Assembly: GCA_000004985.1 (NCBI GenBank)
Contig: GG738884.1
Origin: Naegleria gruberi
Taxonomy: Eukaryota
Length of the DNA: 64,000 nt
Reading direction: 5' to 3' (one strand)
Every line of letters starts with the position of its first letter. Within the stretch, counting starts at the first letter, position 1. Positions 9,635-45,602 of the stretch are shown here, one piece after another. The notes beneath the pieces were generated by a model, which was not told where the DNA came from, did no database searches, and saw nothing but the letters and a program-made list of their open reading frames with translations. A program made the translations under genes and the position numbers.

Positions 9635-11012
9635 ATTTTAATGGTAAAAATTGTTTGTCGTTGTTTTGTTTTTTTCAAACTGTTGAAAATGAAAGATACG
9701 AAGAGTAGTACGATTTTATTCACTTCCACTTGTTTCTTGAGAGATGATTAGGAGGGTGGATGGGAGAGGATAGTGTGTTACGATTTTTGATTGCAATGTT
9801 GCAGGGTCACCTTCTGTTAATTTCCTTCGATTTCAAGAAGTAATACCTTCCGATGATTAAAAAGAAGTGTTGTTTTCTTGGTTATTGTGTGACAGTGGTT
9901 GTTATTTTGTTGGAAGGAAAACAGAAACATCATAGTGATGGGTTACCTTCATCTTGTTTTGTATCCATTACAATTTAATTCATCCTCGTTATTGTTAACA
10001 TTTTGCAACAACAACAGATACGGAATAGATATACAATATAGGAGCAAAACTATAATCATTCAATTAACACAATAATGGCAATTGAAAGTAATTAGAAAAT
10101 TACCATTTACGATCTGGTGGAGCAACAGTCAATACCAGTTATTTAAACAAGTTGTGAACCAAACCATCAAAAAAACAGGCCAAACAACAGTTGTTAGAAT
10201 TCAAACAAGAAGAATCCAGTCGACTGTAATAATGAGAAATGTAACTGACCACATGGTCATGTGAAGGATTTCCAGGTAACAATAGTGAGTTGTATTGATA
10301 ATTGTCTCACGCGGACTTCAAGATGCATGCACAAAGACTCGATCAGATATATTGAAGCGTATGTGCTCATGAGAGATTGATTCAATATGATATTCGAATC
10401 CAAGAGAATAGAATTTAGCCAGACAACCCATGAAGAGATTGAATCTAAATAGATATTACACAAGATGTGTGAACCTCATTACCTATTATTCAACAAAGGT
10501 TTGTATATTTTGTTGTATACAACATTATGGCAAGTCGCGTGCAGGTTTACATTAGGGATCGTCATCTTTGCATCATCTATGATGTGATCCTTATTGTAAT
10601 CCTGATTTCCACTTCAATTCTCTGTGCTTAGTGAGGGACCTTATCTTCGTCATCCTCAAAAGGTACCCACCACACATGCAACAACTCAGCGCTCTGATCT
10701 AATCGATATGTGGCATGATGATGGAAAATTCAGCCTCGTCTTCTTAGTGCCCTAATTGTTTTGAAAGCCAAATTTTCTTAATTGGCACAGTTGTAAACTC
10801 TCGCGTTTTTTATTTTGGAATTTTCGCCAATTTTTAATTGCTATCTTTGTGCCAGGCACGGAAAATTAGATAACAATGTTTAAAAAGCATTCTAAAAATT
10901 CACGTTCATGATCAAATAACTACAAAAAAACAACTCAACAACGATATCGAGTGTTTTCTCACAACCAACCAACTAACGAACCAAACCAATCACACACAAT
11001 TCCTAATAGAAG

Positions 11013-11417
11013 ATGATGAACATTAATAGACTCAGACTCGTGAATAGATTCATTGCCTCTTCCACTCCTCATAAGAGTACATCATCACTCCGATACATGA
11101 TCAACAATAATAATTGTATGGCTACTACTACTGCTGCTTCCTTCCATGTTGATATTAAGAATAATCACATTATCTTGACAGAGGAGAAGAGAGTGTTTTT
11201 AGAAGCTTTGAAACTTGAATTGTTTAATAGCAGTCGATCAAATGTGGCGAATATGATCAAGGATAATAGTCAGCAATCATCATCGTATTCTACAGCAACT
11301 GTTGTTTCTAATGATGATGGGTTTGATAAGAGTTTGGAAAACTCACGAAATTTAATGTGTCACAAGAGACATGATGTGCTGACTCAGCAAGAGTCTGAAT
11401 ACTTTTTGTACTTGTAA
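11013..11417 (+). CDS. Hypothetical 134-aa protein
   Basis: Isolated ORF with an S/T/N-rich N-terminus. No domain recognised. Support is weak. Confidence 0.3.
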   Translation: MMNINRLRLVNRFIASSTPHKSTSSLRYMINNNNCMATTTAASFHVDIKNNHIILTEEKRVFLEALKLELFNSSRSNVANMIKDNSQQSSSYSTATVVSNDDGFDKSLENSRNLMCHKRHDVLTQQESEYFLYL

Positions 11418-11488
11418 ATATTATTTACAATTTCATTGTATTATAAATGTACATTATTTATTATATTCTCTTTGTTGATTGTAATATC

Positions 11489-11878
11489 TTATAAGTTAAT
11501 ATTATTGTTGGTTAACTTGGAAATCATGGAGTTGACTCTTGTGAGTTCATTGAGATAGATAGATGCCAATCTATTCAAATCACCCAAACTCATGTCGCCA
11601 TATTGAACATCTGCCAAGGCAATTTCTATTTGATCAACATAAGCACTTTCTTTTTCGCTTAATGACAACTTATTTGATTTAACCTTATCAAGTTCCTTTT
11701 GAGCTTGATCTTTCTGGATTGATACCTTTGAGCAAGCTTGCTGAAGGTGCTCTTGCTTCTTCTTTTCATCTGTAAGAACATTCCTAAGCCTGGTCTTTTC
11801 ATTCTCCATAACTTTGGTCTTCTCTCTCTCTTGTTGGATTAGGGCAAGAAGTTGTTCAACAGTTGGTTGTGCACTCAT
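11489..11878 (-). CDS. Small coiled-coil protein (129 aa)
   Basis: E/K/Q-rich heptad-like sequence (EQLLALIQQEREKTKVMENEKTRLRNVL...). Discrete ORF between two larger genes. Confidence 0.4.
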   Translation of the reverse strand: MSAQPTVEQLLALIQQEREKTKVMENEKTRLRNVLTDEKKKQEHLQQACSKVSIQKDQAQKELDKVKSNKLSLSEKESAYVDQIEIALADVQYGDMSLGDLNRLASIYLNELTRVNSMISKLTNNNINL

Positions 11879-11962: not shown

Positions 11963-13960
11963 ATGTTCAGATACGGCATTGCTTTTTTATTGATTCTGTG
12001 TTGCAGCATTAATGTTTACAGTTTGTCCTCAAAAGTTGTCAGCTGCACCGATGCCTCATGCACAACACAACTTGCAGTTCAAATATCTTTAGCCTTTGGA
12101 AATCAAAAATCGATGTTAGTAGAATTATCAGACACTGTGAATGAAAAGGGAGAAAAAGTTAATCTAAGGCCTATTAAGATTGTTATTCAGAAGTCAGCTC
12201 CGAAGGCTGTGTATCCTCTATTGTATGTGAAAACGTTTAACGGAAAACCAACAGAAAGCATAATTTACAAAGATGACATTCTTGTTCCAACTTGTGATGA
12301 TTCTTCAAAATCAGCAGCTCCAACTTGTGGTTGGGTAAAGGATAGCCAAGGAAACAAAATACCTGATAGCCAAGGCTTTTGTTGCTCCTGTTCAGTAGGA
12401 CAAATGTTCGGGGACAGTTCAGCGTCTAATAGAGGCGCTCTTAATTGTGGATTTATGCAAATGAAGTCTTCTGCTCACTGTTTACGTCTGGGAGAAGTTT
12501 ACTGGGATGCTTATGAAATAGAAGGTTATGTTATGTCATTTGAAATATCAGTATTCATAGGTGAAACTGGGTTTGATGATATTGGAAAAGTCACTGTTTC
12601 ACCATCATCTAAGTTAGCCCAACTGCCAAAAGGAGGAAGAGTAGAGCTTGAAGGGGACTTCTCTGCTTACAAATCAGTCCCACTTTATGAAAGCAAGTAT
12701 CTATTCATTCCAAGCTCTCCCAAAACAAGTCCAATAGTGGTCAACGGCCAAGCCAACTGGATGTTTATTGACAAATCAATGGTTACCTTAAGTGGTTCAG
12801 AATGCGATAAAATTGGTGTGTCATATGCTCAGTTCAGAAACCAACCAAATGCATGCTCAAGACCAGCACTTACTTGTCTAGCAAATCAAATAGAAGATCT
12901 AAGACTTGCAGACGTTGAATTAATGAAATCAGGCCTAAAATCTGGAAAATATATTGTTTCGAATTTTGGATCATTTGCTGTTAACAAAACCAATACAGGA
13001 AATGTATTAGAAAAGTATTTGGATGAAGATACTAATTCTCAGATCAATTTGTATATTAATGGTGAAAATGTAAAGTTTCTAATAACCAAAAGTGCAGCTG
13101 AAATTTCAGAAGCATATGTTAAAACATTTACTTCCCTTTCCAAAGAAGGTGAAATGTTGGTTAGTGTGAAAAACAAAGGCGCAAATGGTTGTTCCTACGT
13201 TGTAACAGTAACAGAATGCAGTGACAACATTCTTACAATTGTTCAACAAACAGTATTTGTAGATGCATCTAATAAGAAAGAATTAACCTTTCAAGTTAGA
13301 TCAGAGCAGAAACTAGCCACAACCAATCAGTGCAAAGTAACTCTGTTGTTTTCTGATGGTGAAAAAATTCAAGATATCACAGTTACCTTTGACTCAAAGG
13401 ATTACGCTTATGAAAATGCAATGGAAAGCAGTGGAGAACAAACAGGAAAAGTGGAAACAGAAGGAGATCACTCACTAGGTCAATGTAAATGTAACTCCCC
13501 ATTCGATGTGGTCTGTATTGTTCTCAATTCAAGCTCATGTACCTCCTACATTATTGGTTGGGTTGCCTCAATAGTTGGTATTATTGCAACTCCTGTAATC
13601 TTTGTCTTTTTGTGGAGATGTGGTCTATTTGGCCTAATGTTCAAGACGTGTAAATGTTGTGCTTGTTGCTGTTCCTTTCTTCCAACAAGTATTATGAATT
13701 GTCTTATTGGTCCTTATAAGAAGAAATCCAAAAAATCCAAGAAATCCAAAAAGAAGAAACGTCACCACTCTTCCTCTGATAGTGAAGATGAAAAGAAATC
13801 CAAAAAGAAAAAGAAGAAGAGCAAGAAGAATAAGAAGAGAAGGAAGAAGAGACGTCAACAACGTAGAGATGATTTTGAAATGGACTATTACAATGACAGA
13901 TACTCAAAGAGGAGAAGTCACAAGGATATTGAACATGATCCAATTGCTAGGTATAAATAG
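11963..13960 (+). CDS. HAP2: HAP2/GCS1-type gamete fusogen candidate: signal peptide, Cys-rich ectodomain, TM, poly-Cys juxtamembrane segment, polybasic tail
   Basis: 665 aa. Signal peptide MFRYGIAFLLILCCSINVYS. Ectodomain carries the motif PTCGWVKDSQGNKIPDSQGFCCSCSVGQMFGD...NCGF, consistent with the HAP2-GCS1 signature region. One TM helix (IIGWVASIVGIIATPVIFVFLW) is followed by a palmitoylation-like Cys cluster (CKCCACCC) and a K/R/H-rich tail (KKKSKKSKKSKKKKRHH...KKRRKKRRQQRR), as in algal and plant HAP2. Confidence 0.65.
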   Translation: MFRYGIAFLLILCCSINVYSLSSKVVSCTDASCTTQLAVQISLAFGNQKSMLVELSDTVNEKGEKVNLRPIKIVIQKSAPKAVYPLLYVKTFNGKPTESIIYKDDILVPTCDDSSKSAAPTCGWVKDSQGNKIPDSQGFCCSCSVGQMFGDSSASNRGALNCGFMQMKSSAHCLRLGEVYWDAYEIEGYVMSFEISVFIGETGFDDIGKVTVSPSSKLAQLPKGGRVELEGDFSAYKSVPLYESKYLFIPSSPKTSPIVVNGQANWMFIDKSMVTLSGSECDKIGVSYAQFRNQPNACSRPALTCLANQIEDLRLADVELMKSGLKSGKYIVSNFGSFAVNKTNTGNVLEKYLDEDTNSQINLYINGENVKFLITKSAAEISEAYVKTFTSLSKEGEMLVSVKNKGANGCSYVVTVTECSDNILTIVQQTVFVDASNKKELTFQVRSEQKLATTNQCKVTLLFSDGEKIQDITVTFDSKDYAYENAMESSGEQTGKVETEGDHSLGQCKCNSPFDVVCIVLNSSSCTSYIIGWVASIVGIIATPVIFVFLWRCGLFGLMFKTCKCCACCCSFLPTSIMNCLIGPYKKKSKKSKKSKKKKRHHSSSDSEDEKKSKKKKKKSKKNKKRRKKRRQQRRDDFEMDYYNDRYSKRRSHKDIEHDPIARYK

Positions 13961-14008: not shown

Positions 14009-15605
14009 TTACAAAATTATACATAGAGAAGGGCCATCTGTAGTATCTTCGTCATTCCTCTTTCTCTTCTTTGGTTGGTTTGCATTTTTCAAGAATTTTT
14101 CTGGAACTTGAACATGCTCCACAATTTCAAAGTCGTGTGTAAAGTTTCCATCCTCTACAGGTTGTATTTGTGGAGTAATTTCGGTATTTTGTTCTGAAAC
14201 TAATTGTTTCAGATCCAAATCCTTTAGCTCGAATTTCTTATATACAGCCTCTGCATCTTTCCATATTTCGTGAGGTTCTGGGATTTCAAATTCTTTCACT
14301 GCTCCAACTTCTTTAGCTGGAAGGAGATCAGGAACCTCTGATGGCATAGATTGATGGTACACGAGAGAATTCTCACGTGAATACTTCTCGGTAAATCTTT
14401 GAATTTCTGATTCCACTAATTTATATTCATTTTCCAAACTTGCCTTGTCAAATTGAGTGAATAACATTTTAGAATATTCTTTGTAAATACTCTTTGAATT
14501 TTCAAAAAGCTTGGAGGCCTCCTCCATTAATTTCATGGCCTTTCCATTTTCATCATTCTTGTTATAATCAAATGCTGAATATACATGAGAAAGAATATTG
14601 TAAAATGAAACCTTAAGTAATAAATGGACTTTGAGCTTTGGCTCCTCTGACTTGACATATTTCATAGCCTCCTTATACTTTTCGTGGACAAACATTGAGA
14701 GTTTGGCAATAGACTCCAGAGATGTCAACTCTTTTTCTAGAGCAATTCTAATGGCCAGCTCCTGAGCTTGGGCTCTTGTAATGCAATACATCATATTGCA
14801 CATGTCGACAGAGTTACTCTGAGTAAATTTCATTCCACCATAATTTGTCTTGAATTGAACTGCAACATTTTCAGCACAAAACTTCCACAATGAAGCTGAC
14901 CTCAAAATTAATTGAAGTGCTTGCTTTTTGTCAAATACCATTCTTTCATTTGCAAAGTTTAACAAAGAAACACTGGCAGTACTGAGCATCATTAGCATTT
15001 CATATAGGGCATCATTGCTTTCCACCTTGATGGAATTATGCCACCAATTATATACAGAAATGAACTGCAACTTGCTTAACATTGGAAGTGTCTTGGAATC
15101 AACTTTCACTTCTTCCTCCTCCTCTTCCTCTTCCTCACGAACCATAACTCCAGCACCTCCACTTGAAGATGCTCTGTTTCCAGATGATGATTTCTTTGAT
15201 TTCTCCTCCTGTTTGGTCTCTTGTTCCTTATCATCAACCATCGGAGCTGACAAATCCCAAACCAATCCAACCAAGACACTCACATACTCCATAATCTTGT
15301 TATATAATTCTTCATTATCTTTTTCAACCATCAACATTTTCCCATTTGAAAATAACAAACTTACAACTTTTTTGTTCCATCAAATTCCTAACTTGTTCCC
15401 TCTTTTCCATCAATATTTTGGCCAACTCTCCATCAAATGATTTACAATGCCTCTCAAACATCTTTTCAAATACACATCGATTCGTCACTCTGATCGCAAA
15501 TAAACAATTCAAATTTCCATCCAAGGCTTTTCTTCCCTCCGAAGCATACTCCACCAACAAGTGGAAAGGTGGAAAATCTCGATTGCCTGGTAGTTGTGGA
15601 GGCAT
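14009..15605 (-). CDS. BROX-like Bro1-domain protein with a C-terminal CaaX prenylation box (CIIL). Two exons: join(14009..15318,15365..15605).
   Basis: A 46-nt intron (15319..15364, GTAAGT...AAAAAG) joins the N-terminal exon (MPPQLPGNRDFPPFHLLVEYASEG...) to the main exon in frame. The segment NSLVYHQSMPSEVPDLLPAKEVG aligns to the BROX segment [22 protein letters not shown]. The C-terminus ...DGPSLCIIL ends in a CaaX box, as human BROX does (CYIS). Confidence 0.65.
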
Positions 15606-22977: not shown

Positions 22978-23050
22978 CGCCCACCGTGGGGGTCGAACCC
23001 ACGACCACAAGGTTAAGAGCCTTGCGCTCTACCGACTGAGCTAGACGGGC
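22978..23050 (-). tRNA. tRNA-Lys (anticodon CUU), copy A
   Basis: 73-nt cloverleaf. Acceptor GCCCGTC/GGTGGGC (two G-U pairs), D arm GCTC-AGTCGGTA-GAGC, anticodon arm CAAGG-CTCTTAA-CCTTG, T arm GTGGG-TTCGACC-CCCAC, discriminator G. Identical in sequence to copy B. Confidence 0.9.
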
Positions 23051-27881: not shown

Positions 27882-27954
27882 GCCCGTCTAGCTCAGTCGG
27901 TAGAGCGCAAGGCTCTTAACCTTGTGGTCGTGGGTTCGACCCCCACGGTGGGCG
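27882..27954 (+). tRNA. tRNA-Lys (anticodon CUU), copy B
   Basis: Same 73-nt sequence as copy A, in inverted orientation 4.8 kb away. Confidence 0.9.
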
Positions 27955-45529: not shown

Positions 45530-45602
45530 TGCTGACGGACGGGATCGAACCGGCGACCAATGGCTTATTAGACCAACGCTCTACCGACTGAGCTACGCCA
45601 GC
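45530..45602 (-). tRNA. tRNA-Ile (anticodon AAU)
   Basis: 73 nt. Acceptor GCTGGCG/CGTCAGC (one G-U), D arm GCTC-AGTCGGTA-GAGC, anticodon arm TTGGT-CTAATAA-GCCAT with anticodon AAT at 34-36, T arm GCCGG-TTCGATC-CCGTC, discriminator A. Confidence 0.85.

Follow-up and report, generated by a model that had tools for sequence, protein, structure and literature searches.

No gamete fusogen is more widely conserved than HAP2 (GCS1), and finding it in a genome is taken as evidence of present or past sexuality. The course of membrane fusion by this class II protein has been worked out by experiments with the proteins of Chlamydomonas (CrHAP2) and Arabidopsis (AtHAP2) (PMC5332557, PMC6089408). Nine invariant residues at the tip of domain II anchor the family alignment, namely seven cysteines, a glutamate in strand b and an arginine in the cd connection (Fedry et al. 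2018, PMC6089408), and a Glu-Arg salt bridge anchors the fusion loops, formed by E126-R185 in Chlamydomonas, E121-R176 in Trypanosoma cruzi and E117-R163 in Arabidopsis (PMC6089408). The HAP2 ectodomain has 16 conserved cysteines (Fedry et al. 2017, PMC5332557); in CrHAP2, domain III is a seven-strand Ig-like fold, and residues 352-399 make up the original HAP2/GCS1 signature of about 50 amino acids (aa) (PMC5332557). Here we describe a gene of this family from the heterolobosean Naegleria gruberi, located at positions 11963-13960 (+) of a 64,000-nucleotide stretch of contig GG738884.1 (assembly GCA_000004985.1), hereafter the window. We consider it, with a probability of roughly 0.88, to be a single-exon HAP2/GCS1 gene encoding a type I membrane protein with a class II fusogen ectodomain.

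Sex has never been observed in Naegleria, a genus that includes the lethal pathogen N. fowleri, and the evidence for it is indirect, comprising meiosis genes, heterozygosity and isoenzyme data (PMC11756805). The presence of HAP2 in Naegleria and the cryptic sex deduced from it are already published (PMC9928731; see also PMC11756805), and in the Naegleria pangenome HAP2 stands among the syngamy genes as core orthogroup OG0000563, a single copy being recorded for N. gruberi ATCC 30224 (PMC9928731, Table S6). HAP2 goes unmentioned in the main text of Herman et al. 2021 (PMC8296547), and several papers that name Naegleria and HAP2 together do so only in reference or taxon lists. In the present work we establish for the Naegleria protein its family membership, predicted fold, hallmark residues, topology, conserved synteny and purifying selection. 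New in this account are the N-terminal truncation of the public gene models, the intronless gene structure and its synteny with a BRO1-domain gene, the constraint data, and the finding that the transmembrane segment with its poly-Cys cluster is the best-conserved part of the protein.

The coding sequence at 11963..13960 (+) is complete and intronless, with an ATG start and 665 codons plus stop, uninterrupted by internal stops. An in-frame stop lies two codons 5' of the ATG at 11963, making this the longest possible reading frame. Residues 51-665 of the window's open reading frame (ORF) are identical to a deposited 615-aa N. gruberi 'predicted protein' (P0001) over 615 of 615 residues (100%), and it is on this protein identity that we assign the gene to the deposited entry. 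The deposited model begins at Met51 and so is shorter by 50 N-terminal residues, lacking the signal peptide and the first conserved cysteine pair (C28, C33). A homologous N-terminus, with a hydrophobic leader followed by SLSSK..C....C, occurs in the Willaertia magna protein (P0002), and a similar one in the pangenome representative sequence of OG0000563. At the Naegleria lovaniensis locus (L001) an uninterrupted 666-aa ORF (L001:9557-11557) carries the same 'SLSSK..C' motif near its N-terminus, the deposited N. lovaniensis model being 518 aa long and the truncated stretch lying at L001:9557-10000. Given this conservation of the leader in Willaertia, N. lovaniensis and the pangenome representative, both public Naegleria models are N-terminally truncated and devoid of a signal peptide, and the 50 residues with which the window ORF begins (11963-12112) are, judging from these homologous leaders, genuine coding sequence. 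When the 665-aa ORF and two neighbouring ORFs were looked up in the protein collection by exact sequence, no match was returned; for the 665-aa ORF the reason is that the deposited model has 615 aa. No second HAP2 copy was detected in the 64-kb window by tblastn.

The first-pass annotation of this DNA had proposed a HAP2/GCS1-type gamete fusogen, and the family profile bears this out. PF10699 (HAP2-GCS1) matches aa 33-523 on profile positions 4-513 of 515 with 353.7 bits (E=2.1e-105), against a curated gathering score of 27.4 bits, a match far beyond chance; all other Pfam matches of the protein are sub-threshold noise on its low-complexity tail. When the protein was compared by phmmer with all PDB chains, it matched HAP2 ectodomains only, those of T. 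cruzi (5ow4, E=1e-58), Chlamydomonas (5mf1, 6dbs and 6e18, E about 1e-43), Cyanidioschyzon (7s0k, E=5e-42) and Arabidopsis (5ow3, E=3e-38). Its closest database relatives after N. gruberi itself are the proteins of W. magna (54%) and N. lovaniensis (55%), both Heterolobosea, and the three cluster together in a rough neighbour-joining tree.

An AlphaFold2 model, built on an alignment of 53 family members (A1) that also served for the conservation counts given below, has a mean predicted local distance difference test (pLDDT) score of 80.7, with values mostly of 85-98 over aa 30-480 and low confidence limited to the stem (483-505) and the tail. In a Foldseek search of the PDB with this model, ranks 1-9 were all solved HAP2 structures, from Chlamydomonas, Arabidopsis, Cyanidioschyzon and Trypanosoma (probability 1.00, E 2e-40 to 6e-19), in agreement with the structural kinship that had been anticipated. 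These were followed by archaeal Fusexin1, bunyavirus Gc, alphavirus E1, flavivirus E, a nematode endogenous retrovirus Env and EFF-1. The predicted structure comprises three beta-rich domains, the third of them Ig-like: between aa 379 and 477 the model places seven strands (379-386, 395-404, 410-417, 429-433, 438-447, 454-463 and 468-477), which match the Ig-like domain III of the family. That domain, a predicted seven-strand beta-sandwich, spans about aa 376-478 (13088..13396, +). Together, the profile match, the sequence matches and the predicted fold support membership of the HAP2/GCS1 family with class II fusogen architecture.

The residues by which the family is recognized are present as well. 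The domain II tip (aa 98-173; 12254..12481, +), delimited by HMMER alignments to the T. cruzi (TcHAP2) and Chlamydomonas proteins and by the published residue pairs, holds E98 (in KPTE, strand b) and R157 (in SNRGALNC, cd connection) as equivalents of the salt-bridge pair, a correspondence that concerns the presence of the residues; the E98 column is conserved in 49 of the 53 family members. The seven tip cysteines are C111, C122, C140, C141, C143, C162 and C173 (conserved in 47-53 of 53), and the motifs PTCGW (aa 120-124) and QGFCCSCS (aa 137-144), singled out in the first-pass annotation, lie within this region. Exactly 16 cysteine columns are conserved in 46-53 of the 53 sequences, and Naegleria HAP2 has all 16, the tip seven being joined by C281, C298 and C305 (48-49 of 53), an invariant domain III pair, C419/C457 (53 of 53), and a stem quartet, C508, C510, C518 and C526 (46-49 of 53). 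The equivalent of the original HAP2/GCS1 signature, MFIDKSMVTLSGSECDKIGVSYAQFRNQPNACSRPALTCLANQIEDLR (aa 267-314; 12761..12904, +), aligns ungapped with CrHAP2 residues 352-399. At the tip of domain II, three short candidate loops at about aa 99-110, 144-156 and 163-172 carry non-polar residues (I100, I101, Y102, I106, L107 and V108; V145, M148 and F149; F164, M165 and M167) and may be the loops that insert into the target membrane.

The topology is that of a type I single-pass membrane protein. With a Kyte-Doolittle threshold of 1.6 in a 19-aa window, only two hydrophobic segments rise above the threshold, at aa 1-~26 and aa 527-~563, and they coincide with the signal peptide and the single transmembrane segment that had been claimed. 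The cleavable signal peptide (aa 1-20, MFRYGIAFLLILCCSINVYS; 11963..12022, +) is delimited from hydropathy, an AlphaFold2 helix at 3-13 and the homologous N-termini. It is followed by the ectodomain (aa 21-527; 12023..13543, +), composed of class II domains I, II and III and a stem, as judged from the PF10699 match, pLDDT and the fold matches; earlier described as roughly 520 aa and Cys-containing, it measures 507 aa and contains 19 of the 29 cysteines of the whole protein. The stem (aa 479-527, CKCNSPFDVVCIVLNSSSC; 13397..13543, +) has low pLDDT at 483-505 and a short helix at 516-521. The transmembrane helix (aa 528-553; 13544..13621, +) corresponds to an AlphaFold2 helix at 527-553 and to a hydropathy peak of 2.39 at window 530. 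Beyond it the juxtamembrane cluster CKCCACCC, correctly read in the first-pass annotation, occupies aa 563-570 (13649..13672, +) and is a candidate palmitoylation site. The cytoplasmic tail (aa 586-665; 13718..13957, +) is polybasic, as had been noted, and K/R/H account for 48% of the final 90 aa (28 K, 11 R and 4 H); in the model the tail has low pLDDT and would be disordered or helical. A Cys-rich polybasic stretch after the transmembrane segment is common among HAP2 orthologues, and in other species mutation of these residues alters HAP2 localisation or function (PMC8777248), while Arabidopsis HAP2 function depends on the positive charge of its C-terminus (PMC2841615). By analogy, S-acylation (palmitoylation) of the CKCCACCC cluster is plausible.

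Intact, syntenic orthologues occur in N. lovaniensis and W. magna, where the gene is under purifying selection. It is intronless in all three heteroloboseans, with 665 codons in N. gruberi and 666 and 677 in N. lovaniensis and W. magna. When the three orthologues are aligned by codon, synonymous sites prove to be saturated, with a proportion of synonymous differences (pS) of 0.75-0.79, against a nonsynonymous proportion (pN) of 0.30-0.34. At pS>=0.75 the Jukes-Cantor synonymous rate (dS) is undefined for most comparisons, so that pN and pS were compared directly and the finite ratios are indicative only; those ratios (dN/dS) range from 0.06 to 0.19, except for 0.67 over the 20-codon signal peptide. 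The transmembrane segment and poly-Cys cluster form the best-conserved segment, with 76% aa identity and an indicative dN/dS of about 0.06 between N. gruberi and N. lovaniensis, and the motifs YIIGWV, WRCG, CKCCACCC and PYK are invariant in all three species. A BRO1-domain gene (14009-15358, -) lies convergent with HAP2, 48 bp from the HAP2 stop in N. gruberi, and this pairing is kept in N. lovaniensis (L001:11698-13449) and W. magna (L002:12092-13666). In N. lovaniensis, NOG1 and a small, divergent coiled-coil gene have likewise been kept near HAP2.

Among the heteroloboseans, the most conserved part of the protein as a whole is the transmembrane and juxtamembrane region (aa 528-585; 13544-13717), which suggests a lineage-specific functional module here, beyond plain anchoring.

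Some observations weigh against our interpretation. Measured against the trimeric post-fusion crystal forms, the global TM-scores are modest (TMq 0.39-0.45, with a root-mean-square deviation (rmsd) of about 27 Å); agreement is better with a T. cruzi domain II fragment (TMt 0.86) and with Cyanidioschyzon HAP2 (7s0k, TMt 0.60, rmsd 10 Å). The modest global scores may reflect a more extended conformation in the model than in the post-fusion hairpin. The class II fold of Naegleria HAP2, moreover, rests on a predicted rather than an experimental structure. Finally, the column of R157 is conserved in just 37 of the 53 sequences in the automatic alignment, a low count that is probably due to misaligned variable loops.

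Most likely, Naegleria HAP2 works as its relatives in Chlamydomonas, Arabidopsis and Trypanosoma do. One mating-competent cell would display it on its surface; once that cell adheres to a partner, the short non-polar loops of the domain II tip, kept in position by the E98-R157 salt bridge and the disulfide bonds of the tip, would insert into the partner membrane, and the protomers would trimerise. Domain III and the stem would then fold back as a hairpin, drawing both membranes together, and hemifusion would give way to a fusion pore. On the cytoplasmic side, the probably S-acylated CKCCACCC cluster and the polybasic tail are likely to bind to the inner leaflet and to govern the localisation or regulation of the protein. 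Each of these dynamic steps, like the acylation and the assignment of the fusing cells as gametes in a Naegleria sexual cycle yet to be seen, is transferred by analogy from the organisms in which HAP2 has been studied.

Constraint on the gene bears differently on the alternatives to a gamete fusogen. It indicates that HAP2 has a function and leaves room for which one, so that a functional fusogen of this family might serve non-sexual or parasexual fusion, such as somatic fusion between amoebae or the formation of multinucleate cells, and not meiotic gamete fusion. Such a role would accord with the lack of any sighting of gametes or a sexual cycle in Naegleria (PMC11756805) and with the somatic fusion driven by fold relatives in the fusexin superfamily such as EFF-1, but HAP2 acts in the fusion of gametes or mating cells in every organism tested (PMC6089408, PMC8777248), Naegleria retains the complete meiosis toolkit, N. 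gruberi is heterozygous (PMC9928731, PMC11756805), and a separate EFF-1/AFF-1-type N. gruberi protein could serve somatic fusion (PMC5350521); we hold a non-sexual role to be unlikely. The same constraint tells directly against a gene left over from an ancestral sexual cycle and now functionless. Although the failure to see sex in the laboratory (PMC11756805) would suit such a relic, the 665-codon ORF is intact, as are the orthologues of 666 and 677 codons, despite saturated synonymous sites (pN about 0.30-0.34 versus pS about 0.75-0.79); all 16 conserved cysteines and the E/R pair are kept, and CKCCACCC is invariant. The saturated pS with lower pN, and the invariant transmembrane and poly-Cys motifs, argue against a relic, a reading that the constraint analysis largely refutes and to which we attach very little probability; a pseudogene was likewise rejected on the intact ORF and the constraint in the three orthologues.

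An integrated viral or retroelement class II envelope gene is more improbable still, the chance being close to negligible. The idea draws on a fold common to viral class II proteins and to the Env of a nematode endogenous retrovirus (7a4a), but the sequence matches are to HAP2 alone, no viral PDB chain being matched at E<=1. In addition, the GC content of the gene (0.36) equals that of its surroundings and is uniform across the window (0.32-0.37), and Pfam annotation of the window ORFs revealed no flanking integrase, reverse transcriptase or capsid genes. The sequence matches, the cellular neighbours and the HAP2-BRO1 arrangement conserved in N. gruberi, N. lovaniensis and W. magna refute this origin. 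The viral class II, EFF-1 and Fusexin1 (Fsx1) groups were also tried as families for the protein, and its relation to them is one of fold only, not of sequence.

With the protein taken as a cellular HAP2, its intact and constrained gene supports cryptic sex in Naegleria and offers a marker for seeking it. We would give even odds to the fuller proposal that N. gruberi has a working, undiscovered sexual cycle with this HAP2 as its fusogen, acting through Trypanosoma-like short tip loops and a heterolobosean-specific, invariant, S-acylated WRCG...CKCCACCC...PYK module that concentrates it at the fusion site. If this is true, the corrected full-length protein with its signal peptide would provide a molecular handle, as a reporter, antibody target or object of knock-down, for finding Naegleria gametes and mating conditions.

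The pangenome lists a second 'HAP2' orthogroup, OG0010275, with one N. gruberi copy (PMC9928731), and the EFF-1/AFF-1-type N. gruberi protein mentioned above is D2W008, modelled in PMC5350521. Neither the OG0010275 member nor D2W008 was found in the window by tblastn or among the N. gruberi matches of the homologue search.

The first-pass annotation had further called this a 'sexual cycle locus' of 'macrocyst-type', and neither description holds. Macrocysts imply a dictyostelid, and the protein is 100% identical to that of N. gruberi, its next relatives being Heterolobosea and not Amoebozoa. Pfam annotation of 29 large ORFs across the 64 kb led us to reject a sexual locus, the ORFs being varied and unrelated genes: an ABCG transporter, the BRO1-domain protein, the NOG1 GTPase, an F-box protein, ornithine cyclodeaminase, DUF4476, calpain, PX, a Kelch/ephrin-receptor-like protein, ERG4/24, kinases, a class I aminoacyl-tRNA synthetase and JmjC. 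The window also contains three tRNA genes, at 22978-23050 (-), 27882-27954 (+) and 45530-45602 (-), two of them tRNA-Lys(CTT) and one tRNA-Ile(AAT). The N. gruberi BRO1 ORF runs for 449 aa from a TTG, against 540 and 506 aa in its orthologues; the adjacent ORF at 15324-15605 (-) could represent its first exon, in which case the BRO1 gene would have an intron. On the other side of HAP2, a 129-aa coiled-coil-like ORF (11489-11878, -) that has no Pfam match is divergent from it, with the two ATGs 84 bp apart, and the pair may share a bidirectional promoter. A clearly similar 127-aa gene is found at the same position in N. lovaniensis (L001:9118-9501) and is absent from that position in Willaertia.

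The homologues of Naegleria HAP2 include proteins labelled as bacterial, which lie outside the window and have no effect on our assessment of the Naegleria gene, and which are the more surprising item of the two. PF10699-positive loci were located at L003:8207-9886, L004:8272-9897 and 10001-11866, L005:1486-3150, L006:5968-7632, L007:6001-7668, L008:6001-8715 and L009:5995-7665, on contigs with bacterial gene content from six Planctomycetota metagenome-assembled genomes (MAGs) and one Thermodesulfobacteriota MAG; four of the six Planctomycetota MAGs are labelled Phycisphaerae, Sedimentisphaerales or Anaerohalosphaeraceae. One of the proteins (P0026) is encoded on a 24-kb Planctomycetota contig among genes for DNA Pol I, a sigma-70 factor, sulfatases and glycoside hydrolases, and another (P0048) on a 31-kb Thermodesulfobacteriota contig directly after a second PF10699 gene. 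Both share 29-31% identity with Naegleria HAP2 and retain the Glu/Arg tip pair, but lack 6 of the 16 conserved cysteines; P0026 lacks a C-terminal transmembrane segment, and P0048 ends at the contig edge. By sequence P0026 matches solved HAP2 proteins (TcHAP2, 9e-29) and not Fsx1. A recurrence scan of one genome per prokaryotic species yielded five more loci, all from Planctomycetota, on contigs of up to 98 kb and with 46-64% identity to P0026. Three of these loci, scanned against Pfam, gave PF10699 scores of 186-209 bits, one of them being fused to three Bact_surface_Ig-like domains, and one bacterial locus has a phage integrase 1.6 kb upstream. In a rough midpoint-rooted neighbour-joining tree the bacterial HAP2-like proteins form a clade apart from the eukaryotic sequences. 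No paper linking HAP2 with Planctomycetota was found in the literature searched; Moi et al. 2022 note only that bacterial assignments, made 'with caution', exist for some Fsx1-containing MAGs.

Among known fusogens, the overall class II fold of Naegleria HAP2 is common to Fusexin1 (7p4l), the viral Gc, E1 and E proteins and EFF-1 of C. elegans (Foldseek E 2e-17 to 1e-11); these give no PDB sequence match at E<=1, are 7-13% identical in the fold alignments, and lack both PF10699 and the HAP2 cysteine signature. Arabidopsis HAP2/GCS1 (5ow3) belongs to the same family and has the same fold (Foldseek E=5e-36, alongside the phmmer match given above), and differs in a tail that is His-rich, whereas that of Naegleria is Lys/Arg-rich, and in a tip that carries a single amphipathic helix (PMC6089408). 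Chlamydomonas HAP2, the reference class II gamete fusogen, is about 25% identical to the Naegleria protein and has in common with it the three-domain class II fold, the 16-Cys signature, the equivalence of E126-R185 to E98-R157, the PF10699 core, type I topology and the Cys-rich polybasic stretch after the transmembrane segment. Its cd-connection loops are longer, however, with insertions relative to Naegleria at aa 148/149 and 166/167, and its cytoplasmic domain has at least 500 residues (PMC8777248).

The T. cruzi protein almost lacks a cytoplasmic tail (PMC8777248), in contrast to the roughly 112 cytoplasmic residues of Naegleria HAP2 with their poly-Cys cluster and polybasic tract. In its ectodomain, T. 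cruzi HAP2 (5ow4) is the best sequence match among the solved structures, aligned over aa 32-522, and the best local fold match, on domain II. Trypanosoma cruzi and Naegleria both belong to Discoba. The two proteins share the E/R pair, the tip cysteines and short bc and cd connections, the Naegleria cd connection having no long insertions relative to that of T. cruzi although the loop sequences differ, and Naegleria HAP2 may engage its target membrane through 'three small non-polar loops', as in T. cruzi.

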